The notes under the pieces were generated by a model. The model saw only the letters and a program-made list of their open reading frames with translations, was not told where the DNA came from and did no database searches. Of a stretch of 64,000 bases of DNA, positions 3,976 through 53,176 are shown in pieces (position 1 is the stretch's first letter; every line of letters begins with the position of its first letter). A program made the translations under genes and the position numbers. This DNA is from Escherichia phage vB_EcoS_VAH1: the sequence record MK373792.1; one strand, given 5' to 3'.

Positions 3976-3978
3976 TAT

Positions 3979-4007
3979 TTGCTATTATCCCAATATTTTG
4001 ATATAAT
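3979..4007 (+). promoter_or_regulatory. sigma70-type early promoter upstream of the DNA polymerase gene
   Basis: TTGCTA (3979-3984), 17-bp spacer, TATAAT (4002-4007), in an AT-rich context. Confidence 0.5.
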
Positions 4008-4068
4008 ATATTGGTAAGTTAGAGAAGAAACACTGAAGTTATACTTACTTACCAAGAGGAGATTAAAT

Positions 4069-7126: not shown

Positions 7127-7275
7127 AGGTTGTTATATCTAATAAAGCCTATTTCAAGCCCGATGATGAACTTTGGGATTATTGTAGTAAGCAAACCACT
7201 TATCACATAGAGACAATGACTAGTAAATACCCTATTATGTATAAGAATAGTGGTGTTGTTGCCCAAAGAGATTAA
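7123..7275 (+). CDS. N-terminal fragment of SF2 DNA helicase (frame 1 of 3)
   Basis: ATG at 7123; 50 codons ending just inside the start of the next helicase ORF in another frame. Confidence 0.4.
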   Translation: MKVVISNKAYFKPDDELWDYCSKQTTYHIETMTSKYPIMYKNSGVVAQRD

Positions 7276-7702: not shown

Positions 7703-8477
7703 TGAAGTTCACCATTGTGTGGCTACAACTTTCACTAATTTCCTAGAAATATCATGTGCTCGCTATAAAATTGGACTATCCGGTACACTAAAACGAAAAG
7801 ATGGTTTACAAGTTATGTTCAAAGATTTCTTTGGATATAAGATATTTAGCCCGCCGGTTAATAATACTGTTGCACCTACAATCCATAGGTACTCCGTGCC
7901 TGTTGAGCTATCAGGAAACCAAAACGTGCCGTGGGCATTACGTGCTAACGATGTGTATAATCATCCTGAATATCGAGAGACTATTATAAACCTAGCACAT
8001 TTATATGTGAATATGGGGCATAAAGTACTCATTGTAAGTGATAGAACAGAGTTAATCCAAACAGTACTAGAAGCTCTTACGCAGCGGGGTGTTACAACAT
8101 ATGAAATTATAGGGGCAACCCACTTAGATGACCGATTAAAAATTCAGGAAGATATAGCAAAAGGTGGGCCTTGTGTACTTGCAGCAGCTCAAAGTATCTT
8201 CTCTGAAGGTATTTCTCTTAATGAGCTATCTTGTTTAATAATGGGAAGCCTCATTAATAATGAATCTCTCATTGAACAGCTTGCAGGCCGTGTTCAACGT
8301 ATTGTCGATGGTAAACTCGACCCTATTGTTGTAGATCTAATTATGAAAGGTGGCACTGGACTAAGACAGGCTTCTGGACGTATGGCAGTATATCGTAACA
8401 ACGGGTGGAAAACTATTACTATGACCCCGGAGAAAGCAGTTCAATTAGCTAAAATTGCATTTGGCAACAGCTCATAA
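7659..8477 (+). CDS. SF2 ATP-dependent DNA helicase, DExH and C-terminal domain (frameshifted gene)
   Basis: LFIVDEVHH (motif II), LSGTLKRKDG, and C-terminal helicase domain with QLAGRVQR. Confidence 0.7.
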   Translation: MRIIFLKYSVLFIVDEVHHCVATTFTNFLEISCARYKIGLSGTLKRKDGLQVMFKDFFGYKIFSPPVNNTVAPTIHRYSVPVELSGNQNVPWALRANDVYNHPEYRETIINLAHLYVNMGHKVLIVSDRTELIQTVLEALTQRGVTTYEIIGATHLDDRLKIQEDIAKGGPCVLAAAQSIFSEGISLNELSCLIMGSLINNESLIEQLAGRVQRIVDGKLDPIVVDLIMKGGTGLRQASGRMAVYRNNGWKTITMTPEKAVQLAKIAFGNSS

Positions 8478-8489
8478 ATGATGTATAAT
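8461..8489 (+). promoter_or_regulatory. sigma70-like promoter P1 (TTGGCA-17-TATAAT)
   Basis: TTGGCA at 8461-8466, TATAAT at 8484-8489. Shares the 20-mer GTATAATATATACATAAATT with P2. Confidence 0.4.
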
Positions 8490-8562
8490 ATATACATAAA
8501 TTTGAGAGAGAGAAAGTTTCGGATTGATAAGAAAGTCCGAAGCAGAAAAATAAAAATTTTAG

Positions 8563-8592
8563 TTGCTAAATTCTCTCGAAATCTAGTATAAT
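8563..8592 (+). promoter_or_regulatory. sigma70-like promoter P2 (TTGCTA-18-TATAAT)
   Basis: TTGCTA at 8563-8568, TATAAT at 8587-8592. Second copy of the 20-mer containing the -10 element. Confidence 0.4.
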
Positions 8593-8976
8593 ATATACAT
8601 AAATTCGAGGAGAAAACAAAAATTAAATTCTTCGATTATGAAAAGCTATACTTACTAGCTAGAGGAAATTCCGACTTAATTATTAAGTTATTCAAAAGAA
8701 TGCTTACAGAGCCTGATGCTCACCAATTATTGGTCGGTTCCTCATTCATTTTGAATGAATCAACAATAGTTGATAATCAAAATAAATTGTCTAATAGACA
8801 ACTGGCAGAATATCTAGGAATTTTAAGTCTACGAAATTATGCCGAATACAAGTTTACAAACGATCCTAGTTTGGACATACAATATGTTCCAGTATGGATA
8901 CCTCGTTTAGTAATCGACACTAACCCACTAATCGCAATTAACAAATCGAAATTAATCTTTAAAGAGGAAATAAAAT

Positions 8977-9750
8977 ATGGCTAAGTCTTGGGGCGAAACT
9001 ACTGGCGGTTCTAACGATAAAATCGAATTCCTGAAGTTCAACAACGGTATCACTCATGTTCGTATCGTTTCTGGTGTTCTTCCACGTTATGTCTACTGGC
9101 TGACTAATAAAGAGGGTAGCGTAGCTCCTTTCGAATGTCTCCGTTTTAACCGTGACAAAGAGAGCTTTGTTCGTGGTAAAGCTGATCCGGTTCATGAGAT
9201 GGGCTTCTTTGAGAAAGAGCTGGATAAAGATGGTAATCGCGTTCCGCTGAAACCGAAGAAAAACTATATCGCTTTTGTTATCGACCGTTCTGATAACAAA
9301 CTGAAAGTAATGGAAGTCAAAGCTACTATTCTGAAAGGCATCCAGTCTATCATGAAGCAGTTGAGTCTGGCAACTCCGTTTGATATTGATATTTCTATCG
9401 AGAAAAAAGGTAAAGGTTTCGATACTGAGTATGATGTACAGCAGATTGCTGCTATGCAATTCCAGATTAAGCTGCAAGATCCTAACAGTGCAGAATCTAA
9501 GCAATATGCTGCGGATGTAGATCTGATTGGTGAAGCTATGTGTGATGAAGATGGCGACATCATTAAGTTCGAGAAAGTTCCTTCTCTGGAGCAAACCTAT
9601 CCGGTTCCTACCTATGAAGAGCAGAAAGAAGCAATTCAAGCCTTCATGGAAGGTCGTGAGAATAAAGATGATGATGCCAAATCTGGTAACAGCAATGCTG
9701 GTTCCCAGAAAGGTATTGACCAAGAAGCTGCAAGCGATCTGGATGACTAA
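8977..9750 (+). CDS. putative ssDNA-binding/DNA-binding protein with acidic C-terminal tail
   Basis: Strong RBS AAAGAGGAAA; highly optimal codon usage; acidic C-terminus ...QEAASDLDD; followed by a terminator. Confidence 0.55.
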   Translation: MAKSWGETTGGSNDKIEFLKFNNGITHVRIVSGVLPRYVYWLTNKEGSVAPFECLRFNRDKESFVRGKADPVHEMGFFEKELDKDGNRVPLKPKKNYIAFVIDRSDNKLKVMEVKATILKGIQSIMKQLSLATPFDIDISIEKKGKGFDTEYDVQQIAAMQFQIKLQDPNSAESKQYAADVDLIGEAMCDEDGDIIKFEKVPSLEQTYPVPTYEEQKEAIQAFMEGRENKDDDAKSGNSNAGSQKGIDQEAASDLDD

Positions 9751-9755
9751 TAAAT

Positions 9756-9782
9756 AGAGGGGCTTCGGCCCCTTTCTTTTTA
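9756..9782 (+). terminator. Rho-independent terminator
   Basis: AGGGGC-TTCG-GCCCCT hairpin followed by TTCTTTTT. Confidence 0.7.
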
Positions 9783-9786
9783 ACCA

Positions 9787-10263
9787 ATGATTACACAAGA
9801 GCGATTAAAAGAGCTGTTAGATTATAATCCTGAGACTGGAGTATTTACCTGGAAAGTATCTCGTGGTAGAGTTTCAAAAGGATCTGTAGCTGGAACAGCA
9901 GTATCAGTAGGGAATAGGTACACCCGCTGGGAGATTCGAGTTGAAGGAAAAAGATATAAGGCGCATCAGTTAGCATTTCTATACGTTCATGGTTATATTC
10001 CACCTGAGATTGATCATGAAGATAGGAATCCATTGAATAATGCAATACTTAACCTAATAGACTCTTCAAAGTCTCGTAATCAATTAAATAAGAATAAAAA
10101 CTTCGGTAAAGAAACACCAAAAGGAGTCTTTGTAAAAGCCTCTACTGGAAGATACTTCGTACAGATTCAAGGAAAGCACTACGGCTACTTTGATGACGTA
10201 GAACAGGCCAGAACTGTTGCTAATGAGGTATATGATAGGTTGTTAAATGAGAATACTGTTTAG
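9787..10263 (+). CDS. HNH homing endonuclease (MITQERLKEL family)
   Basis: N-terminus MITQERLKELLDYNPETGVFTWKVSRG; HNH motif YKAHQLAFLYVHGYIPPEIDHEDRNPLNN. Confidence 0.8.
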   Translation: MITQERLKELLDYNPETGVFTWKVSRGRVSKGSVAGTAVSVGNRYTRWEIRVEGKRYKAHQLAFLYVHGYIPPEIDHEDRNPLNNAILNLIDSSKSRNQLNKNKNFGKETPKGVFVKASTGRYFVQIQGKHYGYFDDVEQARTVANEVYDRLLNENTV

Positions 10264-11224
10264 TGCTGATCACCATATCAAGCTAGGGCAGGATAAGGTA
10301 CCTAAAGAGTTTCAGAAGCGTCGCTTCCTGATGCTAGGAGAACGGTTAAATGATATATTCCATAATCATAACTGTGATCTTCATATTGCTGGTGGTGATA
10401 TACTTGATGTTGCCGACCCGTCGTCAGAAGAAATAGAACTGCTTGAACAGTTCATGTCAAGACTTGACCATCCAGGCAAAATCTTTACTGGAAATCATGA
10501 AATGTTAACTAAAACCATTTCATGTCTATACCATTATGCGGGAGTTATTAATAAAGTAACTAGTGGGAAGTGGGAAGTAATTACCAAACCATATCGTTCC
10601 CCTGAATTTGATATTGTTCCGTATGATGAGATTCATAAACCCAAGTGGAAACCTGCTGAATCAAAACTATGTTTCACGCATGTTCGTGGTGAAATCCCTC
10701 CACATGTAAAACCAGAAATTGATCTAACTAAGTACAACTGTTATGATACTGTAATTGCTGGCGATTTACATTCTTATACTAATAGCCAGACTATCGGGTC
10801 TACTAGACTCCTTTACCCAGGGTCTCCATTAACTACATCGTTCCATAGAGAACGCACAAAAGGTACAAATGGTTGCTTTATCATTGATACCGACACATTA
10901 AAAGTAGAATGGATTGAACTAGGTGATTTACCACAACTGATTCGTAAAACAATCGGAGCTGGGGAAGAGATGGAACCTAGTGATTATGATCGTGTAGTCT
11001 ACGAAGTTACTGGTGACGTTGTTCAATTAAAGTCTATCAAAGACTCTGATTTATTAGATAAGAAGATTAACCATCGAGTTACTAAAGATGCTAAGTTAAA
11101 TCTTGTTGATCTTGATATGTTGGGCGAACTTGAACTTTACTTCCGTGAAGTCGAGAAGCTATCTCAAGGCGACATTGATAGAATCTTGGCTAGAGCTGCG
11201 AAATATGTCAAAGATTACAATTAA
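10247..11224 (+). CDS. SbcD/Mre11-like recombination nuclease (metallophosphoesterase)
   Basis: Phosphoesterase motifs SADHH, GGDILD, GNHE, GDLH. Confidence 0.85.
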   Translation: MRILFSADHHIKLGQDKVPKEFQKRRFLMLGERLNDIFHNHNCDLHIAGGDILDVADPSSEEIELLEQFMSRLDHPGKIFTGNHEMLTKTISCLYHYAGVINKVTSGKWEVITKPYRSPEFDIVPYDEIHKPKWKPAESKLCFTHVRGEIPPHVKPEIDLTKYNCYDTVIAGDLHSYTNSQTIGSTRLLYPGSPLTTSFHRERTKGTNGCFIIDTDTLKVEWIELGDLPQLIRKTIGAGEEMEPSDYDRVVYEVTGDVVQLKSIKDSDLLDKKINHRVTKDAKLNLVDLDMLGELELYFREVEKLSQGDIDRILARAAKYVKDYN

Positions 11225-41846: not shown

Positions 41847-42057
41847 TATTATAATTGCTTTTATTATCGGGGTACTTGCGGGAATTTTCGGAATGACTGC
41901 GGCTATTAACAAGCATCGTAAGTATACTGCGGAAGTATCGCGGGAGATTGCGGAAAGGGAGCGGAAGTTTGACGAGAAACGTGCGGAGTTTGAGCGGGAG
42001 TGGAATGATGGTTCAAGAAGTTCTCGGAGGAGATTCAAGATAGATGGCAAATCATAA
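41839..42057 (+). CDS. small membrane protein (72 aa)
   Basis: N-terminal TM helix and a charged C-terminal tail. Confidence 0.5.
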   Translation: MFSIIIAFIIGVLAGIFGMTAAINKHRKYTAEVSREIAERERKFDEKRAEFEREWNDGSRSSRRRFKIDGKS

Positions 42058-42541
42058 ACCTCTACTTCCCTTAGCAGAATACCAGAAGAAATTTGATTAT
42101 GACCCTGAAACCGGTATGTTTACTTGGAATTCAGGGAGTCGTAAAGGTAAACCAGCAGGTAGTAGAAATAGTTCAGGAATATCCCTATCAATGGGTAGTA
42201 ATGGGCTATATAAGGCCCATCGGGTAGCGTATCTATACATGACAGGAGAAGACCCGGGTGAATTTCTCATTGATCACAAAGATCAAGACCCCTTCAACAA
42301 TAGGTGGAATAACTTACGTAAAGCAACAAATGCAGAGAATGGAAAAAACTCTTCGGGATGGAAGAATGAGTCTACAGGGGTTAAGGGAGTATATAAACGC
42401 GAGGAGGGAAAGTTCGAAGCAAAACTACGTGTAAATGGTAATAGAATTACCATAGGAACTTTTAAAACTCTTGAGCAGGCTGAAAAAGAACTTAGAAAAG
42501 CCAGGGAGCATTACCACGGTGAGTTTGCAAACCATAATTAA
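42044..42541 (+). CDS. HNH homing endonuclease
   Basis: PETGMFTWNSGSRKGKPAGS...YKAHRVAYLYMTGEDPGEFLIDHKDQDPFNNRWNNL; same family as 2199..2732 and 9787..10263. Confidence 0.8.
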   Translation: MANHKPLLPLAEYQKKFDYDPETGMFTWNSGSRKGKPAGSRNSSGISLSMGSNGLYKAHRVAYLYMTGEDPGEFLIDHKDQDPFNNRWNNLRKATNAENGKNSSGWKNESTGVKGVYKREEGKFEAKLRVNGNRITIGTFKTLEQAEKELRKAREHYHGEFANHN

Positions 42542-42716
42542 TTAGCGCTATTAACCTTTTTGCCAAATTCTTTGGATTACGTACGCGTGGGTGTGCTCAC
42601 TGCCACCGGCGAAAATACTTAGTCTGCTAACCGCCACCCCCGTTACTATTACCATGCTAACTGTTTCACCCTGCAACCATTTTAATTGCAAGGTGAAACA
42701 ATTTCAACTTTAATTA

Positions 42717-43451
42717 TTACGCAACTTTTAATTTCTCAATATACTGTTGCGGGCTGCAACTATATTCTGCGCGTTCTTCTTCAGTCATACCTTCCCAACA
42801 TAATTGCAAGCGATCGGCTAGGAACTGATAATCATTATCATCCTCAAGAGATTCGTCAATAAAGGTTTCACCTATCAATGTGACACCGATTGATAGAATA
42901 TCATTAACGGCTTGCGCGTCCAGCGTTTTAAATCCGTATGATGCCGCCGCTGCCAATACTCCCTTATGATCGTCGATCATCGTGAAATCAGCGTTCGGAT
43001 ATAGCTGTTTAAATAGCTCAAAGTAATGACTTTTATATATAGCGTCCTTACTGTGGTATATTTCGCTAACCTTATCAGCTTCAAAATATTTGTGAAGCGT
43101 ATCGCGGGAAAATACACGGATATTACTATTTCCACGCCCTCGCAGTCCTTGTTTGCGCAGGTAATAATAATCTGACTTGCTCATCAGTCGAGCGGTACAA
43201 ATAACGTTTAACGTGTTGGCGTCATTCATGCACTGGCGCATATATGTAACAAGCGGCAATAGTGTATCTTGCATTATTAAATCATGTTTGCAGGCTTCAT
43301 TTTTATACTTATTTAAATCTAAATTGCCCTCGCTATCAAAGCAAGGCGCTACGCGATGGAAAGAATTGATGATTGTTCCGTCCAGATCCCAAATCATGAC
43401 GCGGGAAATATGCGGGAAATTACGGGTAATATTCGTTTTAACTTGATTCAT
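42717..43451 (-). CDS. dmp: 5'-deoxyribonucleotidase, HAD-superfamily (T5 dmp-like)
   Basis: HAD motif I IWDLDGTI; 244 aa; adjacent to the A1/A2-like genes. Confidence 0.75.
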   Translation of the reverse strand: MNQVKTNITRNFPHISRVMIWDLDGTIINSFHRVAPCFDSEGNLDLNKYKNEACKHDLIMQDTLLPLVTYMRQCMNDANTLNVICTARLMSKSDYYYLRKQGLRGRGNSNIRVFSRDTLHKYFEADKVSEIYHSKDAIYKSHYFELFKQLYPNADFTMIDDHKGVLAAAASYGFKTLDAQAVNDILSIGVTLIGETFIDESLEDDNDYQFLADRLQLCWEGMTEEERAEYSCSPQQYIEKLKVA

Positions 43452-43491
43452 TTTGTTACGTTCTCCGTTTAAGGGATTAGATTAATTCAGC

Positions 43492-43518
43492 ATTGCCCGC
43501 TTATAAATAGCGGGCAAT
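43492..43518 (-). other. perfect 9-bp stem-loop downstream of the A2-like gene
   Basis: ATTGCCCGC-TTATAAATA-GCGGGCAAT; no U-tract follows on the minus strand. Confidence 0.4.
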
Positions 43519-43531
43519 AATAAATCAACTA

Positions 43532-43927
43532 TTAAAGACCATAAGCCAACGCATCAGCGATAAAACTAATATCCTCACCTGATACATCGGAACGGATGCC
43601 CGCGCATGTAAATACCTTCGCGCTCATTAGCTGATCATCAAGGCAAGCGGGGCAAGGCGCGACAACTGCAAAGGCTAGGCCTGATTTCACCGCGTCGATG
43701 ATAATCGTTTCCTGTTTTACCGTGTCAATGTAAACGCCTTTCGCCTTGATGCGGCTGGATAGTTTGCCCGTGGTATAGGCGAAAGTCGTGATCTGAAGCG
43801 CCTCGTTAAACTCCATCAAATCATCAACAACGTGACCGGCCTCAACGTGATACCGCTCACCATTTGAATAAACTAGGACGATGGAAGAATGAGCGCGATC
43901 GAATGGAATACGGTTATTAATAGCCAT
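43532..43927 (-). CDS. pre-early protein, A2-like by position
   Basis: 131-aa ORF immediately downstream of the A1-like gene; called by synteny with T5 only. Confidence 0.4.
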   Translation of the reverse strand: MAINNRIPFDRAHSSIVLVYSNGERYHVEAGHVVDDLMEFNEALQITTFAYTTGKLSSRIKAKGVYIDTVKQETIIIDAVKSGLAFAVVAPCPACLDDQLMSAKVFTCAGIRSDVSGEDISFIADALAYGL

Positions 43928-43996
43928 GTTTATAACTCCAATTAATTTAATAAACTTTTATAGCGGCGGTATATTTCATCCGCCCGCCTGATTTAA

Positions 43997-45661
43997 TTAC
44001 GAGAAAAATTTACCATTTTTAAAGTCGATCAAGGTGCGTTGACCGTTTGCATAGGTAATAACATGCGTTTGTGTCCAGCTTGACGCGCCAACGTTATAGC
44101 CCATATCAAGGGAACCAGACACGCCAGCGGTATAAACGCCGCCGTAGATGCTGGCGGTGTGAGTGTGCCCCGTGTTTAATTTGCCCAATTTCTTAAACTG
44201 TTTTGGATTTCCACGGCTCCCGTTAATGCCGTTGTGACCATGTACACCGCACTCAATGCCTGCAATCTTGAAAGATTGATCAGTCGTTAGGAAAATTGCG
44301 TTAAACTCACAACCTGCAACCTTGCGCAGCGCATAATCTAGCACGTTGAAGGTGTCATCTTTTTCTGCAATAGCTCCGTAAATCGCAGCATTAAGGCGGT
44401 GATACAGTTCCGCGTTGGCTGGGTCGTCTTTAATGTTGGCGTTACGATCATCCAGCCAACGTGATAGCGCCAGATCGTGATTAGATTCAACAATGATTGT
44501 TTGACTAAAATCACGTTCCATCGATTCCAGCACGCGCCCCGTATCGATAAGATCATCCAGAACTTTATCACGTCCGGCTGCATATTGTTTTGCTAGGAAT
44601 ACACCGGACGCACGATTATGATGATTGCGCGATGTAAAATCATGCACGTCATGGATAAACTGATATTTTGGTTTAAGAATATCAAGCAAGCTATTTTCGC
44701 CAGCCCATGACGCAGCGGCGCAATCGTCATCTAATTTTTCGGCGTGTATGTCACCGTATTGTAAACCTAAAACATGCCCCGATGTTTCATAGCATCCTGC
44801 GGGAGTAGCGCAAACATTCAGATCATAAAACACGCCGCTTTCGTCCATCGTTTCAAGCTGGCGCACAAAAAACTCACCGTCTTCGTCGAACTCAACAATA
44901 AGCGCACCGAAGTTATGCAGCGCCTCGGCCTTTTGTCCTGCTTTCTGCTGGATGTAATTTTTTAGCGTCGCCGTGCCGGTTGAATACATACGGCGTACTA
45001 CTTCACCTTTTAAAGCTGGAACGCTTTCGGCGGTGATTTTAGCGTGACCAATTGCCAGACCTTCAAGATTAAGCGCGGTTGCAGTTTCAGCGAATCCAGA
45101 AAGCGGATAATCTGCGGTGGGCAAAACATTAATTTCAGCCATGAAAGCAAAGCGGCGATTGTTTAAAAACACGTTTTTATTGCAGATATATTTGTCAAAC
45201 GCGGAATCATATTTGATTCCGTCAGCACCTTCCCCATTTTGAAAACCGTTTTTATTATAAATATACTTGCTAACCAGCAAATCAGCGCCAATAAATTGGG
45301 CATATTGTTCAAGCGAGGCTAAAAAGTTTTTATGCGGGAAAGTATTATTCTGAATCGATGTAATAATAAAGCGTTTACCTTGTTTTACTTCCCAGCTTTC
45401 CACCGTGCTAGAAATAACTCCAGCGGCTTCAGGGCGGTCATCGTTTTTTATGGCTTTTGCTACTTTCGCCGCTTTTGGTTTCGCTGGTTTATTTGCTTCC
45501 AACCAGTCACAAATCGCGGTCGAGTGTTTTGTAGTATCATAGACCGCTTTTGAAATATCGTCGCAGACTTCCAGTTTAGTAGCGCGCAGACGTTTACCGT
45601 AGAAATTGAAATCAGCGGCCATTTTCAGGATAACGGTTTGTTTTTCTGCGGAAATAATCAT
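43997..45661 (-). CDS. A1: pre-early A1-like protein with calcineurin-like metallophosphoesterase motifs
   Basis: 554 aa; metallophosphoesterase-like motifs GDIH, ESNHD, GHTHT; higher GC than the surrounding genome. Confidence 0.7.
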   Translation of the reverse strand: MIISAEKQTVILKMAADFNFYGKRLRATKLEVCDDISKAVYDTTKHSTAICDWLEANKPAKPKAAKVAKAIKNDDRPEAAGVISSTVESWEVKQGKRFIITSIQNNTFPHKNFLASLEQYAQFIGADLLVSKYIYNKNGFQNGEGADGIKYDSAFDKYICNKNVFLNNRRFAFMAEINVLPTADYPLSGFAETATALNLEGLAIGHAKITAESVPALKGEVVRRMYSTGTATLKNYIQQKAGQKAEALHNFGALIVEFDEDGEFFVRQLETMDESGVFYDLNVCATPAGCYETSGHVLGLQYGDIHAEKLDDDCAAASWAGENSLLDILKPKYQFIHDVHDFTSRNHHNRASGVFLAKQYAAGRDKVLDDLIDTGRVLESMERDFSQTIIVESNHDLALSRWLDDRNANIKDDPANAELYHRLNAAIYGAIAEKDDTFNVLDYALRKVAGCEFNAIFLTTDQSFKIAGIECGVHGHNGINGSRGNPKQFKKLGKLNTGHTHTASIYGGVYTAGVSGSLDMGYNVGASSWTQTHVITYANGQRTLIDFKNGKFFS

Positions 45662-45757
45662 ATTAATAAAACTCCATTAAAGGGATTAAAAACGTTTGTT
45701 ATTGGCAAATATTGCCAAATATAACGCCTTGAATAATAGGCGTTATAATTTGCAACA

Positions 45758-45955
45758 TTAATTTAAAGGCATAAGGCTAGAACTAACACCACAAGCAACG
45801 GCAACAATAAAGCAAAGTAAGCCTAAACGCTTCGCTAGTTTAGATTTACGTTTAAAATAATATGAATCTAAATCATTTTGAAAATAAGCAAATAATAATG
45901 AGGCCGCCATAATAAATAAGCCTAGAATGAGGGATTCAGTAGGGTAAAAGATCAT
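45758..45955 (-). CDS. small membrane protein
   Basis: 65 aa with two predicted TM helices. Confidence 0.45.
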   Translation of the reverse strand: MIFYPTESLILGLFIMAASLLFAYFQNDLDSYYFKRKSKLAKRLGLLCFIVAVACGVSSSLMPLN

Positions 45956-46011
45956 TTTAAAACTCCAGTCAAAGGGAAATTATAGTGGGGAATATTCCCC
46001 ACTAATTAAAT

Positions 46012-46428
46012 TTATTCACCTGCGGCCTGTTTTACTTCATCGGCAACGCCCAATAGTTGCGCCACGGCGTCCAGCGTTTCCAATTTTGCGCTTTCCAGTG
46101 ATGCCAGATCGTCAGCGTCTTTGATAATGCCGGAATCGATGGCATGTTTTGCAATGACGCGTACATAATGCGCCTTGCGAATTGAACTGCCGCCGCCAAC
46201 TTTGCGCGGCTTATCGCTTTTCTGATACGCTTTTGCGCTGGTCAATTTTGAGCGAACAGACACGGGAGAAGCCGCGCCAACTGTTTTTGCAATCTCTTTC
46301 AGGCCGTCGCTGTTAGCGAACTCCAAGCCGTTTTCATTGATGAGCTGTTGATACATGGTAACAGCCTGTTGGGTGTTTTCTTCATTCCATGCGAATTTTG
46401 CGGATTTTTCGGTTTTAACGTTAGCCAT
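46012..46428 (-). CDS. hypothetical pre-early protein
   Basis: 138-aa ORF with RBS GGAG; preceded by an operator-like palindrome. Confidence 0.5.
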   Translation of the reverse strand: MANVKTEKSAKFAWNEENTQQAVTMYQQLINENGLEFANSDGLKEIAKTVGAASPVSVRSKLTSAKAYQKSDKPRKVGGGSSIRKAHYVRVIAKHAIDSGIIKDADDLASLESAKLETLDAVAQLLGVADEVKQAAGE

Positions 46429-46463
46429 GATTGTAACTCCTATCGATTTAATTTAAGGGATAA

Positions 46464-46512
46464 GATTAACATAATGTTAATCGTTATATACCCCGAACTA
46501 CTGGGGTATATA
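46464..46512. promoter_or_regulatory. operator-like 19-bp palindrome plus 10-bp-stem hairpin
   Basis: GATTAACAT-A-ATGTTAATC (46464-46482) and TATATACCCC-GAACTACT-GGGGTATATA (46485-46512). Confidence 0.45.
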
Positions 46513-46526
46513 AAAGTAACACTAAA

Positions 46527-46778
46527 TTACGCTACAGCTTCCCATTTTTCGTTGCGCTGGATAACCTTTACAACGTCGCCGGATTTAACCCGAACGCTAT
46601 AAATAGTTTTTCCGTTGTTACTCCGTTCCGTTTCAGCGTATACCGCGTCAATCACATCAAACGGCATAAGCGCCGCGCCTTTGATGCGTTCGGCCTTTCC
46701 GGTTAATTCGTCCGTTTTAGTAACGAAAGGGATGAAAACGGATTGACCAATTTTTGGCGCATTAGTAACGTTTTTCAT
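46527..46778 (-). CDS. hypothetical pre-early protein
   Basis: 83-aa ORF with RBS GGAG. Confidence 0.5.
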   Translation of the reverse strand: MKNVTNAPKIGQSVFIPFVTKTDELTGKAERIKGAALMPFDVIDAVYAETERSNNGKTIYSVRVKSGDVVKVIQRNEKWEAVA

Positions 46779-47010
46779 GGTATAAACTCCAGTTTATTCA
46801 GTGGATTGTTCCGCATTACCTGCTGTAAAAATAGTGGCAGGTAATAAGTAACAATCCGCTCGCCATTATAATCAATTTAAAGAACTCCTCTCAGGCCGCT
46901 ATATCCCAGTTAGGGGGCGGGGCACATTATGGTAAGTGCCGACCGTCAAATTGTATCAAGTTATCGCTCTTATCGAACTGGGTACATCTTAAAGCCTATC
47001 GGCTAGGGTG

Positions 47011-47214
47011 TCAAACAATTTTTTGCAGTTTTTTATGATTTTCTTTCAAGTCAATCATAATGTTTCGCCAGATCATTTCCAGACCTTGCTGGCGGCCTTT
47101 CTTGTACTGCGTGAATCTATATTTTACGGATTGCTGAGCTATTGTCAACAATTTTTTAGTAGTACCATCCAATTTTTTGGCGGGTTTACCAGTGATCAAT
47201 AAAGTTTGTTTCAT
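47011..47214 (-). CDS. hypothetical basic small protein
   Basis: 67-aa Lys-rich ORF. Confidence 0.4.
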   Translation of the reverse strand: MKQTLLITGKPAKKLDGTTKKLLTIAQQSVKYRFTQYKKGRQQGLEMIWRNIMIDLKENHKKLQKIV

Positions 47215-47715
47215 ATCTGCGATTCCTTATATTATATAAGTTTTCCGCCGATAGACTTTAAGATATACCCAATTTTTAAAGAGCGCGGCGGTAAACTTCC
47301 CCGCCGTTGTAGTCCGTTGCCGTCCTACGAGATAAATAATAGGTGATTCCCAAAAATGGCGCAACCTTATTTTTGTAAAGAAACGTAAAGAAAGCAAATA
47401 ATCGCAGGGTGTCCGGCGATTGCCTAAGTTTAAAGGAAACGGGCGCGCGAATACCATAAAACCGAGCAGATAGGCAAGTAATTTTTTCATTTATATTTGC
47501 TTTGCCCTACTTGACAAATCTTAAAAAGCTCGTGGTAGCGATAAACGAGGGTAGGCAATGCAATGGCATACCTGAAAATTTTACCGCTTTCTAGGGCGTT
47601 TTAGGCGGCTCATTTTCGATTTAACAAATATTTAACAAAAGCAAAATTGAAAAATAGTTTGAAAAGGTATTGACTTTTTAAAATCAAGACTAAACGAGTT
47701 ATTTTATAAAATTAA

Positions 47716-48234
47716 TTAATTGACAATTCCAAATTCAGCTTTTTTAGTTTCTACCCATAATAATAACTCTTGTAAATCATAACCTGATTTACTAACACTT
47801 TTGTTACTAGTAGGATCTTTAACTATAGCGCGCAAATAGTTTCTTCCGTTATTATCAACTCTAGAACCATTATAATAGATATGCTTAGGCAACTTATTAG
47901 CACGCTTATAATCTTTCTTGTTATTCATATTCTGCTTATGATCTACTAAGCGAAGATTATTAATGTTATTATTAGCACGGTTACGATCATTATGATCGAT
48001 TGTTAGATTGCTATCAATCTCACCATTAAATAATACCCATATTATTCTATGCACTGCGTATTGTTCGCCTGCTAACTTTACTCGATAGTAACCTGTGTTA
48101 CTATAATGCCCTGCAATATCACCCACCTTACTATTACCTTTCTGTACTTTCCACCTTAGAAATGATGGGGATGTTTCATCATAATAAAAGTTATCATTAG
48201 CAAGCGAATAATCTATATCTTTAAATAGACCCAT
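47716..48234 (-). CDS. HNH homing endonuclease
   Basis: YAVHRIIWVLFNGEIDSNLTIDHNDRNRANNNINNLRL HNH motif; AP2-like C-terminal domain. Confidence 0.75.
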   Translation of the reverse strand: MGLFKDIDYSLANDNFYYDETSPSFLRWKVQKGNSKVGDIAGHYSNTGYYRVKLAGEQYAVHRIIWVLFNGEIDSNLTIDHNDRNRANNNINNLRLVDHKQNMNNKKDYKRANKLPKHIYYNGSRVDNNGRNYLRAIVKDPTSNKSVSKSGYDLQELLLWVETKKAEFGIVN

Positions 48235-48425
48235 TGTTATAGTTTCCTTATGTTATTAGTTTAATCTCTATTATATTATATCAAAATCATTAGCAGACTA
48301 CCTAATGAGTTTTTCAGGTTTAATTAGCAGACTCATAATCACTCTAAAAACCTATTAGCCAACTAACTATATTTTATTATATAATAACAACATAAATTAG
48401 TTAGTGAGAAACACTATCATTTAAG

Positions 48426-48533
48426 TTATCCACAGGTTTATACATTTTGTAAATTTGATTGACACAATAGGAAGGCTTTATAGCACTTTTACACAGACTT
48501 ATCCACAGGTTATTCCACTGTATAAATATACAG
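48426..48533. promoter_or_regulatory. DnaA-box pair plus 16-bp palindrome module (copy 1)
   Basis: TTATCCACA at 48426-48434 and 48499-48507; palindrome CTGTATAAATATACAG at 48518-48533. Confidence 0.55.
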
Positions 48534-48799
48534 GGTAAAGGGGAAGCATATTATAATGATGCCCAAAATAAGCGGCCTAAAACGCTTTCTAACGAGCTAA
48601 ATGCGGTGGGGTAATATTAAAGTAAAGCCTTCACCCGTCGCCCTGGTGGCTTCACCGTGTTTTGCTCTTTACTGTACCGCTGCGCGGTTAGCATAAAACT
48701 AGGCGTTAGGCAAGGAAAATAAAAAGGTAAAATAATATTTGCCTATGCTAGAAAATTACCTTTACCATTCACTCACCGATTAACGAGGGAGGCCAACAA

Positions 48800-49777
48800 A
48801 TGAGGCTGTATAAACCAGATAACGCAACCGTCTTAAAAGGTGCGCTGCGTAACCTGCTGGACGGTAGCAGAACAACCAGCATCAAACATTTTGTTAACAA
48901 GGCCGAAGATATTCACCAAAACTTTTTTGATGATTTCGATGCCTATGATATGAGTAGTTTTTTGCAACTGTATAAGCAAGGGGCAACGATTATCTTGTAT
49001 AATCGAGATAATCACTTGCTTACTAGCAGGGGGCCGGATACTGATTTTATAATCGTAAAAGGTAGCATAGTAAAAGCCTATGATACTGGGGCGGGCTTAG
49101 AAGTTTTTTCAATAGAAAATTATGAAGCCAACCCCAATGATCTTTATGACGTAGAAAATTTTCTCGATTCATTTTGGCGTTATTTATCAGTTGGCTGGAA
49201 TCGGTCAATTGGTGACGGGTATCGTCTGGCGGCTGTAATGGCTTTTGATGACGATGGCAATTTTTTGCTACCACGGGAGCTATACCCATATGTATATGAT
49301 GGCGACATCGAAAGCGCGGGCTTTTCTTTCTGGAAGGAGGAGGATCAGCCTATTGACAACACGGAAAAACATGCTGTAAATTCTAACACTCAAACCATTG
49401 AAAACAAAGGAAAAAATGCCATGACCAAGATCGCTAATATCGTTGCCGCTAATAAGTCCGCCGTTGTAAATGCTGCAAAACTGGAAGCGGGTAAAATTGC
49501 ACTGACTCAAATTACGAAAGTAGCGGCTAAAAAAGCACCGTTTATTATCAAGGGTTATATTGATACGCCGATTGGTCGGGTAGTGATTGCCAACCTGCTG
49601 AGCGTAGCGGTTGACCAGTACGCCCCAAGTAACCAAAAGGCGAAAGCGGTAGCGGATGCAGCTATGGAAGCGGCTATGTTAGAAATGGTGCAATCTTTTA
49701 ACATTGCTGAGATGATTGATGAAATGGTGAAAGGTATTGATATTTCTACTTTTACCGTTAACACCGAAAACGAGTAA
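48800..49777 (+). CDS. hypothetical protein (pre-early region)
   Basis: 325-aa ORF with RBS GAGGGAGG; no recognisable motifs. Confidence 0.55.
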   Translation: MRLYKPDNATVLKGALRNLLDGSRTTSIKHFVNKAEDIHQNFFDDFDAYDMSSFLQLYKQGATIILYNRDNHLLTSRGPDTDFIIVKGSIVKAYDTGAGLEVFSIENYEANPNDLYDVENFLDSFWRYLSVGWNRSIGDGYRLAAVMAFDDDGNFLLPRELYPYVYDGDIESAGFSFWKEEDQPIDNTEKHAVNSNTQTIENKGKNAMTKIANIVAANKSAVVNAAKLEAGKIALTQITKVAAKKAPFIIKGYIDTPIGRVVIANLLSVAVDQYAPSNQKAKAVADAAMEAAMLEMVQSFNIAEMIDEMVKGIDISTFTVNTENE

Positions 49778-49897
49778 TAGTTAACCTAGTGTAAAGTTTT
49801 GTAAAGGTCGCCATAATCGGCGGCCTTTTTTGTTATAATGCCTTTACACCGTTCGAGGACGGTTGAAAATTTTCCCAAAAAATTTTGGAGGCTTAAA

Positions 49898-50128
49898 ATG
49901 GTTGCATATTCTTCTTCTGACGCTCTTTTCACTGGAAAAGGCTGGGTATCAAATCGCTGGATCATTCAAGAAATGGTGCAAGAATACGGCATTGCTAAAA
50001 CTTACACTACCATTCAGGCGCTTTATGATAATGATCAAATTGATCAGCAAACAGCGGGCTTTTTGCTGGATACCCTGAAGGCGGAACATTGCACTAAAAA
50101 ACAAGCTGCAAAAATTATTTTAATGTAA
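49898..50128 (+). CDS. hypothetical small protein
   Basis: RBS TGGAGG before ATG 49898; the ORF-track start at 49838 is an upstream in-frame Met without an RBS. Confidence 0.45.
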   Translation: MVAYSSSDALFTGKGWVSNRWIIQEMVQEYGIAKTYTTIQALYDNDQIDQQTAGFLLDTLKAEHCTKKQAAKIILM

Positions 50129-50177
50129 GTAATAACGGGGGATATACAGTATCCCCCACTAACTAGGGGAAATAAAA

Positions 50178-50324
50178 ATGGTTATTTTTCGGTCAATTCT
50201 AGCGGGTATCTTGGGCGCTATTTTATCCCTTTTTGCAATAGCTTTCGACGTTCACGCGGTTACTATTGGCGCGGGTATCGCTGTTTTTTCTTATTTGCTG
50301 GGCTGCATGAGTAAAGGAGAATAA
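50178..50324 (+). CDS. small membrane protein (48 aa)
   Basis: RBS AGGGGA; two hydrophobic helices; preceded by hairpin GGGGGATA-TACAG-TATCCCCC. Confidence 0.4.
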   Translation: MVIFRSILAGILGAILSLFAIAFDVHAVTIGAGIAVFSYLLGCMSKGE

Positions 50325-50326
50325 AA

Positions 50327-50539
50327 ATGATTCGTAACGTTTCCCTTGCCCGTTCCAAAGGCTTTAAGCTGGTGGACGTTAACACGTTCGAACGGGAAGA
50401 CTGTAAAATCGAATATATAGCACGGAATAAAAACGCCTTTCGTGTTACAGAAAAGAAATTTGATAAGCGTGGCAACGTGATAGCTGAAAAGGTTAAATAT
50501 TTTGCCACCTTTTACGCTGCATTTCGTGGGGTACTATGA
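50327..50539 (+). CDS. hypothetical small protein
   Basis: 70-aa ORF tightly packed after the previous gene. Confidence 0.45.
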   Translation: MIRNVSLARSKGFKLVDVNTFEREDCKIEYIARNKNAFRVTEKKFDKRGNVIAEKVKYFATFYAAFRGVL

Positions 50540-50766
50540 AAAGCGTTGTTGTTATTATCCTTGCAATGGTTGGCGGTTTTACTGCCACCTTATTTAAGAA
50601 TGATCCCCTTTTACTGGGGATTTTTATGCTTTTATCTGGTTATCTGATTGGGAGGCTAACAAATGATTCAACAAATTAAAAGGGCGTTCCAATATTGGGG
50701 CGTCCTGCCTTCAATCGGTTTTATTCTGATAATCATTAGTCAGCTAATGATTATAGGCGGAACTAT

Positions 50767-51126
50767 TTGGGAGCTATGCAAATGGTAATTTATGAGGGCA
50801 ATCGCTTTGTTACTAATTGCCGTCCGGCATTGTTAGCAAACTACTTAAACCAGCTTTCACCTGAATATAAGGGCGTCATTAATATTTACGAGGGAAAAGC
50901 GCATTATAAAATCAATGCGGTCGTTGCCCGTGAACTAGCGTTTCAATTTTTAACCTTTGCATCGTGTGATATTCAGGTCATGGGTGAGGCATTAATTGCA
51001 GAAAATGAAGACGATTTTATTAATATTTTTCGCAAGGTGTGCACCGAGCGCCTGATCATGAAAGGCGCATATATTCAATCAACGGCGGATAGTATTGAAA
51101 CAGCGTTTCGAAAGGTGGCGCAATGA
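50767..51126 (+). CDS. hypothetical protein
   Basis: 119-aa ORF. Confidence 0.5.
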   Translation: MGAMQMVIYEGNRFVTNCRPALLANYLNQLSPEYKGVINIYEGKAHYKINAVVARELAFQFLTFASCDIQVMGEALIAENEDDFINIFRKVCTERLIMKGAYIQSTADSIETAFRKVAQ

Positions 51127-51227
51127 GATTATATATTTTCATTGGTAATGTTAAGGCTGCAAATGATTCCGCCGGGGGCGATAATGTTCGCCACTATTGG
51201 CAAAATTATATTTACTAGGGCGTTATT

Positions 51228-51422
51228 ATGAGCAATAAAATTATTGTAACCAAAACTACCACAATGGTTGACGTTTTTTATGTGCCCGATACGCTGGAAA
51301 ACCGGCAAGCGGTCGAGCGTGGCGAGTATGATAAAGTGATTTATGATCACGATGGTTATTATAAGCATTTGGTGGATTCCTACGGGGAGGAGGAAAAAAT
51401 CACGCATCAATTACCGGACTGA
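51228..51422 (+). CDS. hypothetical small protein
   Basis: 64-aa ORF with an acidic C-terminus. Confidence 0.45.
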   Translation: MSNKIIVTKTTTMVDVFYVPDTLENRQAVERGEYDKVIYDHDGYYKHLVDSYGEEEKITHQLPD

Positions 51423-51661
51423 CAACAAGCGGGGCGCAACTATCAGGGAGTGCCCCCAATTCTCAAATGAGAATGATTCTCATTTGACCGCGCCCGCGAT
51501 GGTTAGCCTGCTAATGATTAGGGTGTTACGTGTCGCCTTGTGTGATAGTTAGCGAGCTAACTAATTTTCAAGCCTCCTCCAATTTTGCCCTTGTTTTAGT
51601 ATCCCCATCAAAATAAAACGCGTTAGAATGCGATTCAGGGCGTTTTAGGCCTATATTAGAA

Positions 51662-51789
51662 TTATCCACTGTGTAGGAATACTGTATAAATATACAGTAG
51701 GATAAGCTGTGGATAAGTCTGTTGATAACGCTTCAAAATGGCTAGAATTCTGTCAAGGCAAATCGTGCTGTTGATAAGTCTGTGGATAA
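51662..51789. promoter_or_regulatory. cluster of five DnaA-box-like sites plus 16-bp palindrome (copy 2)
   Basis: TTATCCACT (51662-51670), TGTGGATAA (51708-51716, 51781-51789), TGTTGATAA (51720-51728, 51769-51777); palindrome CTGTATAAATATACAG at 51682-51697. Confidence 0.6.
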
Positions 51790-51814
51790 CTTAAATAACA
51801 GTGTTTCTCACTTC

Positions 51815-51980
51815 CATTCTTAAATGAGAATCATTATCATTCGTATTCCACTTTTTAAATGAGAATCATTTCACTTTTTAAATGAGAATCATTTCACTTT
51901 TTAAATGAGAATCATTCCCTTTCTTAAATGCGAATCATTATCATTCGCATTTCACTTTTTAAATGAGATTGATTCTCATT
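51815..51980. repeat. tandem array of about six ~21-bp repeats (consensus TCACTTTTTAAATGAGAATCATT)
   Basis: Direct reading: repeated TTAAATGAGAATCATT cores with sub-repeats CATTATCATTCGCATT. Confidence 0.75.
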
Positions 51981-51999
51981 ATCATTCGCATTCAGGCGA

Positions 52000-52017
52000 G
52001 CAGGGCAATTGCCCTGC
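52000..52017. other. perfect 18-bp palindrome GCAGGGCAATTGCCCTGC
   Basis: Perfect dyad, followed by a short T-run (GCTTTTG). Confidence 0.5.
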
Positions 52018-52022
52018 GCTTT

Positions 52023-52803
52023 TGTGCAAATCCGACATTTGCTCCAAGGGTTACGTGCTGGCGTGTATGTGCGAATCCGACAATTTTTGGTAGTGTGCAA
52101 ATCCGACCCGAAAAATTTTTATAGTGTGCGAATCCGACAATGAATTTTCCCAAAAACTCCAGCAATCACGAACTGCGTTCGAATCCTGTGGGATATGTGC
52201 AAATCCGACACGGTTTTTCTAGGATTAAGATGTGCGAATCCTACAAGATTTTTGTGACTTCGATGAGAGGGTGTGTGATTGTATAGGTTTGAGGAGAAGT
52301 TGAGAGAGCGAGAAAAATTTGGGGAGCTAGAAGGATGTGGGCGCAGGATTGGTGCGAAGCACCTGATTTGCGGGGATTTTGGGGAAGAGTTGAGATAATT
52401 TGGGGAAATTTGAGATAGGTGCAGAAAAAGTAAAATTTTATTAGCAAAATGGGGCAAAATAGCTTGACAAGTGAAAATTCTTGTGGCTCTAAAAACTCAG
52501 GCAATCATGGGCCTTCGGCCCGAAATAATGCTGCTATTTTCAGGAGAGTAAGAGTTCCTAAAAACTTAGGCGTTTGTGCAAATCCGACCATAAATTTCTA
52601 GAAATGCAGTGTGCAAATCCGACAGTAATTTCTGGAAATGTGTTTTCAAAAAATGTCTCCTAGAAATAACCGCCCTCCCTATAACCGCCCTGTATTAAAC
52701 CGCCTAGTATATGTAACGTTGGAGAGAAACTGCCCTAGAATATGTGCAAATCCGATGAATATTTTTGTGCTTATCAATTTCCTAGAATATGTGCAAATCC
52801 GAT
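52023..52803 (+). repeat. dispersed array of ten 15-bp iterons, consensus TGTGC(A/G)AATCCGACA
   Basis: Copies at 52023, 52068, 52095, 52125, 52196, 52231, 52575, 52610, 52743 and 52790, all in the same orientation. The last two lie in a duplicated ~35-bp unit; TGTGCTTATCAATTTCCTAGAA is also duplicated. Confidence 0.75.
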
Positions 52804-53176
52804 GAATATTTTTGTGTGATCTCTAGAATTTGTGCTTATCAATTTCCTAGAAACTTAGGAGTCTAGAAGAAAGTGTTGTGCCATCCTAGCAGATGAGCGG
52901 CAACCGGTGTATCATCTTGAACACAGATATTGCCTTTAAATATTATAAGGTAAATTAAAAGTAAAGTAGCCCCCATTACATGTGTGCTTACTCGTGGGGC
53001 GCGTGATTAATTACGTAAGTCCTCGACTGTCATACCCCTGTTGCTCGGTCGCAAAGAGTTAACGAAGTCTCGTGTAATAATCATCGCCCCTAGAGTTCAA
53101 AACAAGAGTTGTTTTTAATCTATGTGATTATTATAACATGTGCCGCAATGAGTTGTCAAGAAGATTTTGTTAACTT

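Follow-up and report, generated by a model that had tools for sequence, protein, structure and literature searches.

A non-coding interval of Escherichia phage vB_EcoS_VAH1 as the probable orthologue of Repeat Region 3 of phage T5, with a repeat block that looks like an array of Fur binding sites

The non-coding interval at positions 51423-53176 of Escherichia phage vB_EcoS_VAH1 is very probably the orthologue of Repeat Region 3 of phage T5 (positions are those of the window, the whole 64,000-nucleotide stretch of sequence record MK373792.1 that was analysed). As such it would be an untranslated region containing the cis-acting injection stop signal (iss), the 8% nick and the inner boundary of the terminal repeat, together with ordered arrays of putative protein-binding sites. 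We draw for this reading on the homology with T5, on the anatomy and conservation of the repeats, and on the match of several of them to the consensus sites of host factors. From left to right, the arrays would comprise paired DnaA boxes (which recur in inverted form 3.3 kb upstream), at least nine Fur-box-like sites, an 18-bp palindrome with the nick, six iterons, a G-rich tract, an invariant terminus block and a further four iterons.

Homology with T5, gene setting and conservation

Window positions 51588-52921 aligned with T5 9317-10608 at 89.4% identity over 1345 bp, and the match to AY543070 (88.6% over 100% of the query) lies over an 'iss' feature. The label 'injection stop signal (iss)' is carried by the T5 records NC_005859 (misc_feature 9140..10149) and AY692264; the GenBank annotations of T5 place the iss at 9140-10149, the nick at 9748/9749 and the left terminal repeat at 1-10219. 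By alignment, the counterpart of this terminal repeat is window ~42594-52489, and homologues of A1 and A2 sit within the same repeat as the region. The phage is T5-like, and in the assembled window its terminal repeat is collapsed.

A sequence-only reading of this DNA had located the region between pre-early-like genes and minus-strand early genes, at the place of the T5 iss, and had proposed alignment to the T5 iss region as a check; the alignment was run and agrees with that location (89% match to T5 9317-10608). Its suggestion of an undescribed DNA-level system was wrong: the T5 region was named Repeat Region 3, its DnaA-box pairs, DRE/DRC repeats, palindromes and nine DRD repeats were listed, and the same repeat classes were catalogued across 25 T5-like phages (Davison 2020, bioRxiv 10.1101/866236). 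The region, to judge from its sequence, is not new, being an orthologue of the annotated T5 iss whose 25 relatives were compared before. In the literature, the DNA-transfer pause is known for T5 and BF23 only.

The interval extends from the last plus-strand pre-early ORF, which ends at 51422, to the first minus-strand ORF, which ends at 53177, and it is flanked by converging genes, pre-early on the plus strand and early on the minus strand (ORF list). It is bordered by small pre-early ORFs and by one ORF that is homing-endonuclease-like; the gap itself holds no gene. The earlier description of about 1.3 kb with no convincing ORF was right as to the absence of an ORF and too small as to extent, the gap being the whole of 51423-53176.

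Database searches returned from 474 to 609 T5-like records matching the region, and the order of the arrays is kept in Tequintavirus, Epseptimavirus, Sugarlandvirus and Erwinia phage KEY. An alignment of 8 phages, to which all figures for invariant columns refer, showed the motifs to be the conserved parts of the region. Vibrio T5-like phage D415 does not share the architecture (iterons are absent, and there is one Fur-like pair only), and Proteus phage 1 is without the T5 iterons and has a weak Fur-like array.

Anatomy of the repeat arrays

Five DnaA-box-like 9-mers, an 18-bp perfect palindrome, ten iterons in one orientation and a purine-rich tract had all been claimed by the sequence-only reading, and each was recovered in this analysis. 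Its 16-bp perfect palindrome does not exist; what it described there is a 9+2+9 inverted repeat TACTGTATAaaTATACAGTA (TACTGTATA-aa-TATACAGTA) at 51680-51699, with 90% invariant columns over the 8 phages. Its ~21-bp tandem array proved to be a genuine array with a period of 23 bp, part of a family of 7 copies. That reading overlooked the homologue of the nick site, the terminal-repeat boundary, the inverted partner at 48403-48533 and the likeness of the tandem block to Fur boxes.

The DnaA boxes, of which two are perfect, lie at 51662 on the plus strand and at 51708, 51720, 51769 and 51781 on the minus strand. The first (51662-51670, TTATCCACT) has 1 mismatch by box scan; the other four form two pairs with 3 bp between boxes (51708/51720 and 51769/51781, spanning 51708-51789), which are the core of IRD'-spacer-IRC' in Davison's layout. 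The clustering of the boxes is real, since five were found in 128 bp vs ~0.04 expected from the shuffle mean; over the whole window such boxes were not enriched (14 vs 20 expected). The distant inverted partner (48403-48533; Davison's IRC-spacer-IRD, 'Repeat Region 2') is 88-90% complementary to 51682-51812 and carries perfect DnaA boxes at 48426 and 48499.

To the right of the boxes lies the DRE/DRC block (51808-51995), with 7 copies of TTAAATGAGAATCATT by repeat search and a Fur-box-like array by matrix scans; within it, a 23-bp tandem array at 51845-51939 has 4.1 copies at 91% matches. A double Fur-box-like site of 30.7 bits, formed by the 12+1+12 palindrome TCAAATGAGAAT-g-ATTCTCATTTGA, is located further left, at 51463-51487. 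A BLAST search with the 23-bp block in 5,426 E. coli genomes gave nothing useful, short operators falling below BLAST significance in 28 Gb, and was replaced by matrix scans of K-12. A matrix prepared from the phage copies of the 23-bp repeat block only was run over three annotated K-12 segments (105 kb), and its top 7 matches were all in Fur-regulated promoters, i.e., fecI, fepB/entC (two sites), fhuA, fecA, fepA/fes and fepD/entS. The reciprocal, E. coli-derived matrix gave 11 matches in a 561-bp block vs 0.25 expected (P 4e-15), with scores (13.5-17.9 bits) inside the range of its training operators (8-20.7 bits), and enrichment at the same place was seen in 12/12 sequences tested (the window, T5, nine other T5-like phages and Phapecoctavirus anhysbys). 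Seven sites with no more than 5 mismatches from GATAATGATAATCATTATC occur in the 561 bp, vs 4.5 expected per 64 kb, and the unrelated Phapecoctavirus shares the double Fur-like box (29 bp, 97% identity). The sites match the 19-bp palindromic consensus, or overlapping hexamer array, of Fur; they do not overlap an iron-regulated promoter, as operators would, and lie between converging genes. The 23-bp repeat block looks like an array of Fur binding sites, and we found no earlier report of this: 'Fur' occurs 0 times in Davison 2020 (bioRxiv 10.1101/866236), and no such link appeared in full-text searches of the openly readable literature.

The 18-bp perfect palindrome GCAGGGCAATTGCCCTGC (52000-52017; 89% invariant columns) is followed by GCTTTT and is terminator-like on the plus strand. 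Directly beyond it, at 52019-52020 on the minus strand (ccctgcgc/tttt), lies the site homologous to the 'major DNA single-chain interruption' of T5 (T5 9748/9749 by T5 annotation; the 8% nick), which is near-invariant (mean conservation 0.98, 86% invariant columns in the 8-phage alignment). The T5 FST shear point, placed at T5 ~9618 (Davison 2020, bioRxiv 10.1101/866236), maps via the alignment to window ~51885, inside the DRE/DRC block.

The iteron TGTGCRAATCC(G/T)A (TGTGCRAATCCGA) is present at ten plus-strand positions. Six copies make up cluster 1 (52023-52243; starts 52023, 52068, 52094, 52125, 52196 and 52231), inside the terminal repeat, and four make up cluster 2 (52575-52802; starts 52575, 52610, 52743 and 52790), outside of it. 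Over the whole window the motif gave 14 matches vs 1.5 expected, a count that 0/100 shuffles reached. The 10th iteron is supplied by a 47-bp duplication (52734-52780) that is specific to the window. Compared by eye with operators of CRP, FadR, PurR and TyrR, the iteron appeared to fit none of them. Also on the plus strand in this right part are three AACCGCC(C) repeats (52661-52705; 71% invariant columns) and, by repeat search, two identical 24-bp direct repeats TTTGTGCTTATCAATTTCCTAGAA (52764-52852); the conserved right border of the repeat region follows at 52861-52921, the T5 alignment ending at 52921.

Between the two clusters, the plus strand holds a G-rich purine tract (52255-52440; 67% purine, G:C = 69:12, GC skew +0.50) that includes a 20-bp tandem, TTTGGGGAAGAGTTGAGATAA x2, found by repeat search at 52378-52417. 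Next to it is the most invariant block of the region (52441-52543; 82-93% invariant columns), in which are found the hairpin GGGCCTTCGGCCC (52511-52523) and the right-hand limit of the direct terminal repeat. This boundary corresponds to the physical right genome end, ~52489/52490 (...cttgtggctc/taaaaactc): the T5 right-end alignment stops at 52489, and the junction ctc/taaaaactc, 86 bp ahead of iteron cluster 2, is identical in T5 NC_005859, Sepoy (PhageTerm) and Shivani. By homology with these phages, the interval would contain a physical end of the phage genome. The annotation of the terminal-repeat end is inconsistent among records, being given in T5 at 9749, 10139 or 10219 and varying by up to ~470 bp; the Kenya-K18 and poul149 records place it 100-200 bp further left.

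Proposed role in DNA transfer, and alternative readings

If the interval acts as Repeat Region 3 does in T5, the left genome end would enter the cell first and transfer would pause as the region reaches the cell envelope; in T5, the Fur-box block is where the sheared first-step fragment ends. Host DnaA and Fur may load on the first two arrays during DNA entry. The pre-early genes of the repeat would then be expressed, and A1 and A2 would restart transfer; the iterons could be bound by a phage protein (A2 or the small terminase subunit) that acts in restart, in the cut that forms the terminal-repeat end during packaging, or in both. That transfer pauses at this region in the window phage we infer wholly from its homology with T5. 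Several points do not sit easily with the scheme: proteins bound on the cytoplasmic side are not an obvious stop for DNA that is being pushed in, the Fur-like boxes are without promoter context, the terminal-repeat end is annotated inconsistently, and both D415 (no iterons, one Fur-like pair only) and Proteus phage 1 (no T5 iterons) depart from the pattern. Fur binds DNA only when iron-loaded, and for this reason an essential role of Fur in the stop is doubtful.

It is extremely improbable that a gene for a small protein or a structured RNA is concealed in the interval. Several GenBank records annotate 'hypothetical proteins' across the region, and ORFs within the interval reach 112 aa; however, the 8-phage alignment revealed no ORF common to relatives across the interval, and its indels (1, 2, 8, 10, 23n or 47 bp) are not multiples of 3. 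A PHROGs search with the four longest ORFs of 51423-53176 gave 0 matches, ARAGORN found no tRNA in the interval, and the sole Rfam match to it was a chance miRNA (E = 0.66), with no family assigned. A conserved coding gene across the interval, or lack of the repeat architecture in relatives, had been named beforehand as an outcome that would count against a DNA-level function; no gene is kept among relatives, and all the enterobacterial relatives examined have the architecture. A reading as the regulatory region of some gene was dropped because promoter-like matches inside the region were weak and at chance rate in a promoter scan (9 vs 7.8 expected). A replication origin, which the sequence-only reading had offered as an option, is very unlikely: the five clustered DnaA boxes, the ten iterons and a GC content of 33% at 51600-51900 would suit one, but no initiator gene, such as an iteron-type origin would have, adjoins the region or its iterons, the iterons straddle a genome end, and there is no local GC-skew switch of origin type. 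No 13-mer-type unwinding repeats were noticed on a plain reading of the sequence. Mapping in T5 put the origins close to the centre of the genome, and first-step DNA does not express replication genes (Davison 2020, bioRxiv 10.1101/866236).

Two further readings concern parts of the interval. The right half (iterons, G-rich tract and terminus block) could be mainly a packaging or terminus signal, the injection stop being a separate function of the left half; we regard this as a serious possibility, though at somewhat less than an even chance, and it is compatible with orthology to Repeat Region 3. In this reading, iterons to the left and right of the cut, all in one orientation, would be bound by the small terminase subunit, which would thereby set the right end of the terminal repeat. 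The two clusters flank the terminus in the most invariant block, and in keeping with what may be a packaging signal, the boundary falls between them in every record checked with the T5 10219-type or a nearby annotation, the most invariant 100 bp span the terminal-repeat junction, which is the same in T5, Sepoy and Shivani, the clusters are 344 bp apart in the window and in T5 and 343-344 bp apart in four other Markadamsvirinae, and all iterons share one orientation; the DRD iterons were given no role in Davison's model (Davison 2020, bioRxiv 10.1101/866236). Against packaging, no iteron lies near the left genome end (~42594), the boundary annotation differs between records by as much as ~470 bp, and a transfer-restart role fits equally well, cluster 1 starting 3 bp past the nick and ~130 bp past the T5 shear point. 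For the left half, the DRE/DRC block might consist of functional host Fur operators, with Fur-Fe2+ and DnaA coating the first-step boundary and aiding the pause or iron-tuning pause and restart; we hold this tentatively and put it on the unlikely side. The seven E. coli operators picked out by the phage-only matrix, the seven close sites in 561 bp, the operator-like scores, the enrichment at one position in 12/12 sequences, the position of the T5 shear point (~9618) within the block (T5 9552-9717) and the same double box in an unrelated Phapecoctavirus all point toward Fur. Other points speak against it. The boxes are placed between converging genes rather than in a promoter; iron starvation, the state in which FhuA-type receptors are most abundant, leaves Fur inactive; the ligand may instead be a phage protein of like specificity; Proteus phage 1 has a weak array and Vibrio phage D415 almost none; and no supporting publication was found in the openly readable literature searched.

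A joint reading, in which the block at the T5 first-step boundary would be made of conserved, genuine Fur operators, Fur and DnaA on the incoming DNA would be part of an injection brake or of iron tuning, and the DRD iterons would be a packaging or terminus signal, is unlikely in our estimate. If it is true, the double box in the unrelated phapecoctaviruses would suggest that virulent coliphages make broader use of Fur than has been recognised. By itself, the region is one more copy of a known T5 feature and adds nothing new. Since the 1960s no explanation has been found for the stop of T5 DNA after 8%, and most of the conserved repeats have no role in the published DnaA model; the Fur-like boxes around the shear point and the iterons on either side of the genome end would turn parts of this set of repeats into specific, cheap experiments.

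Comparison with known systems

The interval resembles T5 Repeat Region 3 in nucleotide sequence (89% identity), in position and in order (DnaA-box pairs, DRE/DRC, 18-bp palindrome, nick, DRD iterons, purine tract, repeat end). It differs from it in having ten iterons vs nine, through the duplication at 52734-52780, in one extra perfect DnaA box and in the copy number of the 23-bp unit; moreover, the upstream 170 bp (51419-51587) are replaced in the window by a segment with the palindromic Fur-like box, which does not align to T5 and is shared with DT57C and Kenya-K18. With DnaA clusters of the oriC/datA type the window has in common boxes of consensus TTATCCACA in close pairs; unlike those clusters, it showed no unwinding element on a plain reading and has no initiator context, the T5 origins lie elsewhere, and its boxes recur in inverted orientation 3.3 kb away.

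E. coli Fur operators (e.g., fhuA, fecI, entC and fepA) and the phage sites are alike in the 6-bp offset of overlapping sites, in the match to consensus (up to 15/19 in the window and, by our own comparison, up to 16/19 in DT57C and anhysbys) and in being mutually recognised by independently built phage and host matrices. The phage sites differ in that they have no promoter or regulated gene and form a tandem array, with 23-bp or 35-bp spacing, inside a terminal repeat, and their binding of Fur is putative. Known terminase recognition regions, such as the cosB R-sites of lambda and the concatemer-junction repeats of T7, lie beside genome ends. Unlike these, the left genome end of the window phage is without such repeats, and terminase binding is putative; the likeness would be that in the window, too, short repeats of one orientation lie on both sides of a fixed cut site, with a conserved hairpin next to the genome end.

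Organisation and identity of the repeat region

We examined the non-coding gap at 51423-53176, which is bounded by the last plus-strand pre-early ORF on one side and the first minus-strand ORF on the other, and on which transcription from both flanks converges according to the ORF list. The gap holds a 12+1+12 palindrome (51463-51487), a single DnaA-like box (51662), a 9+2+9 inverted repeat (51680-51699) and two pairs of DnaA boxes (51708/51720 and 51769/51781; 3 bp between the boxes of each pair). Seven copies of TTAAATGAGAATCATT occupy 51808-51995, among them a tandem array (51845-51939; period 23 bp, 4.1 copies); an 18-bp perfect palindrome (52000-52017) separates this block from iteron cluster 1, six plus-strand repeats of TGTGCRAATCC(G/T)A (52023-52243). 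Further right lie a G-rich purine tract (52255-52440; 67% purine, G:C 69:12), a block with a GGGCCTTCGGCCC hairpin (52441-52543) and the four plus-strand iterons of cluster 2 (52575-52802); the right-hand part of the region also has three AACCGCC repeats and a 24-mer in two identical copies. The feature noticed in the sequence-only reading was real, highly ordered and correctly located; its tandem period is 23 bp rather than ~21 bp, and the 16-bp perfect palindrome it listed does not exist in the region.

The repeats of the region are not due to chance. The iteron core occurred 14 times in the window versus 1.5 expected, a count attained by no shuffle, with 10 of the 14 in the region and all of these on the plus strand. 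DnaA-like 9-mers showed no enrichment window-wide (14 seen, 20 expected) and were clustered in the region (5 in 128 bp versus ~0.04 expected). The tenth iteron is supplied by a 47-bp duplication (52734-52780) that, among eight aligned phages, is present only in vB_EcoS_VAH1, so that iteron copy number drifts by unit duplication.

When eight Markadamsvirinae were aligned, the conserved parts were the motifs themselves, indels measured 1, 2, 8, 10, 23n and 47 bp, and no ORF was common to the eight. The longest ORFs of the region matched no PHROGs family, in keeping with the earlier view that it has no convincing ORF, and neither Rfam nor ARAGORN found RNA genes there; a hidden gene is unlikely. 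The order DnaA boxes, 23-bp-type repeats, iterons was also found in Epseptimavirus, Sugarlandvirus and Erwinia phage KEY; in Proteus phage 1 the T5 iterons are missing, the tandem block is weaker, and DnaA boxes and a tract of purine-rich repeats persist; Vibrio phage D415 is diverged here. Within Proteus phage 1 (Novosibvirus; 2950-3140), about ten 15-18-bp repeats GAATAATAGAATGGNGGG (T5 orientation) replace the T5-type G-rich tract, so that a strand-asymmetric purine tract beside the repeat end seems to be kept without sequence conservation.

Megablast with the region matched 474 phage records, all T5-like. Alignment of T5 showed that the window is a circularly joined assembly of a T5-like genome, in which the terminal repeat has been collapsed: the left terminal repeat, T5 1-10219, corresponds to window ~42594-52489, and the alignment of the right-end copy ends at 52489, the final base of the T5 genome. 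T5 9317-10608 aligned with 51588-52921 at 89.4%. T5 GenBank records label 9140-10149 "injection stop signal (iss)" and place the "major DNA single-chain interruption" (the nick) at T5 9748/9749, which is window 52019/52020 within a near-invariant ccctgcgc/tttt. As judged from alignment and annotation, the best-supported statement is that the region is the T5-type iss together with the terminal-repeat junction. The proposed placement at a T5-like iss was borne out, whereas the suggestion of an undescribed system was not: Davison (2020; bioRxiv 10.1101/866236), comparing 25 T5-like phages, had itemised it element by element as Repeat Region 3 (IRD'-spacer-IRC' with paired DnaA boxes, DRE and DRC repeats, palindromes, nine DRD repeats, which are the iterons, and DRA repeats). 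The inverted partner IRC-spacer-IRD that he reports upstream was found at 48403-48533.

Several neighbouring elements were also observed. The 170 bp from the last pre-early ORF to the conserved repeats (51419-51587) did not align to T5 and bear a palindromic Fur-like box common to DT57C and Kenya-K18; the T5 counterpart (T5 9144-9317) contains an annotated terminator. Just before the left genome end (~42594), a 165-aa ORF (42044-42541) occupies a segment without alignment to T5 (42044-42593). A perfect minus-strand sigma-70 promoter (TTGACA, 18 nt, TG-TATAAT; 53130-53159) lies just below a homing-endonuclease-like ORF and is directed leftward into non-coding DNA; the 226-nt RNA downstream (52900-53125) folds more stably than shuffled sequences do (z = -2.6), has its end close to a hairpin with a U-rich run behind it, and may be a small RNA. 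T5, where alignment ends at 52921, lacks this segment, whereas the megablast match to DT57C covers it.

Fur-box character of the 23-bp repeats

A single base distinguishes the repeat core, AATGAGAATCATT(ATC), from that of the Fur consensus, GATAATGATAATCATTATC. A 21-nt matrix, made solely from 63 distinct repeat copies in nine T5-like phages, was scanned across 105 kb of E. coli K-12; its top seven non-overlapping matches (24.2 to 12.7 bits) were all in Fur-regulated promoter regions (fecI, fepB/entC with two sites, fhuA, fecA, fepA/fes and fepD/entS), which represent ~1.1% of the sequence scanned, and the eighth-ranking match scored 10.0 bits. The reciprocal matrix, for which the literature Fur consensus served as seed and 18 K-12 sites as input, gave 11 matches of at least 12 bits within 51440-52000 versus 0.25 expected (P = 4e-15), and was enriched at the homologous block in 12 of 12 sequences tested (the window, T5, nine other T5-like phages and Phapecoctavirus anhysbys). 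The phage repeats (13.5-17.9 bits) scored inside the host-operator range (8-20.7 bits). By these scores the block is an array of Fur-box-like sites; Fur may bind them, and such binding may be of importance. No Fur link to the region occurs in Davison (2020), where the word is absent, or in full-text literature searches, older subscription papers being outside their scope. The shear point defining first-step DNA, T5 ~9618 (Davison 2020; window ~51885), falls inside the block, whose T5 coordinates are 9552-9717.

The unrelated myovirus anhysbys has three Fur-like boxes in a non-coding gap, including a 29-bp stretch 97% identical to 51925-51953. Within this 150-kb genome the segments concerned are 2480-2590 and 2800-2870, the flanking genes converge, and TTTGAGATAA repeats, similar to those of the T5-like purine tract, lie ~250 bp past the boxes; several other phAPEC8-like phages likewise match. 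The top Fur-consensus match of the window (42821-42845; at most 3 mismatches, 17.9 bits) is inside the dmp gene, ~230 bp from the left genome end, with an identical T5 copy, and may be chance because it is coding sequence (EDDNDYQ).

Iterons and the genome end

T5 (NC_005859), Sepoy (PhageTerm) and Shivani agree in their annotation of where the terminal repeat ends on the right: all three use the junction ...gtggctc/taaaaactc, 86 bp before the first cluster-2 iteron (20 bp in IME260). In other records the repeat end is put up to ~100-200 bp further left, and in one T5 record at the nick; apart from this last, every annotated end lies in the interval that separates iteron clusters 1 and 2. Invariance within the region peaks in the 100 bp across the junction (82-93% invariant columns among the eight Markadamsvirinae), and the distance between clusters is fixed at 344 bp in both the window and T5 and is 343-344 bp in four other Markadamsvirinae (iteron start positions). 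A window scan found no iterons near the left genome end. In phages generally, the DNA packaged last is ejected first. The left end of T5 is first into the cell (Davison 2020), so packaging would begin at the right end, and the iterons could therefore be a terminase recognition array, or else sites for the pre-early protein A2 where second-step DNA starts.

Repeat ends are inconsistently annotated (T5 9749, exactly the nick, 10139 and 10219; Kenya-K18 and poul149, 100-200 bp left of the T5 10219-type junction; BF23, 9743 from PhageTerm, PMC10644984), and a strand-specific nick next to a palindrome may mislead read-pileup end mapping. The A2 start codon is preceded, at a distance of 36-60 bp, by a near-perfect 9+1+9 palindrome, GATTAACAT-a-ATGTTAATC (46464-46488; GATTAACATtATGTTAATC in the A2 sense), which comes directly after a terminator-like hairpin; it is conserved in T5, is not conserved in Erwinia phage KEY, and could be an operator ahead of the A2-A1 genes.

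The transfer pause

Phage DNA would enter left end first, transfer would pause on arrival of the region at the envelope, and A1 and A2, encoded in the same terminal repeat, would restart it. The T5 tail tube (~160 nm) has room for about 500 bp, so that a shear point level with the cell surface would put DNA from ~0.5 kb rightward, in the purine tract or terminus block, at the portal; from this geometry, the brake could act at either end of the 1.3-kb region. A replication origin, which the sequence-only reading had also listed, is unlikely here. The sole published mechanistic proposal has membrane-bound DnaA capturing the DnaA boxes and A1/A2 cutting the DNA free, and by its author's own statement leaves the other repeats unexplained (Davison 2020). 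As the DNA enters, Fur would probably join DnaA on it as a second host protein, and a phage protein would occupy the iterons. The region is already known, and the overall interest, which is modest, comes not from the region itself but from the Fur-box and iteron points, both of them testable contributions to a long-standing problem that is still unsolved.
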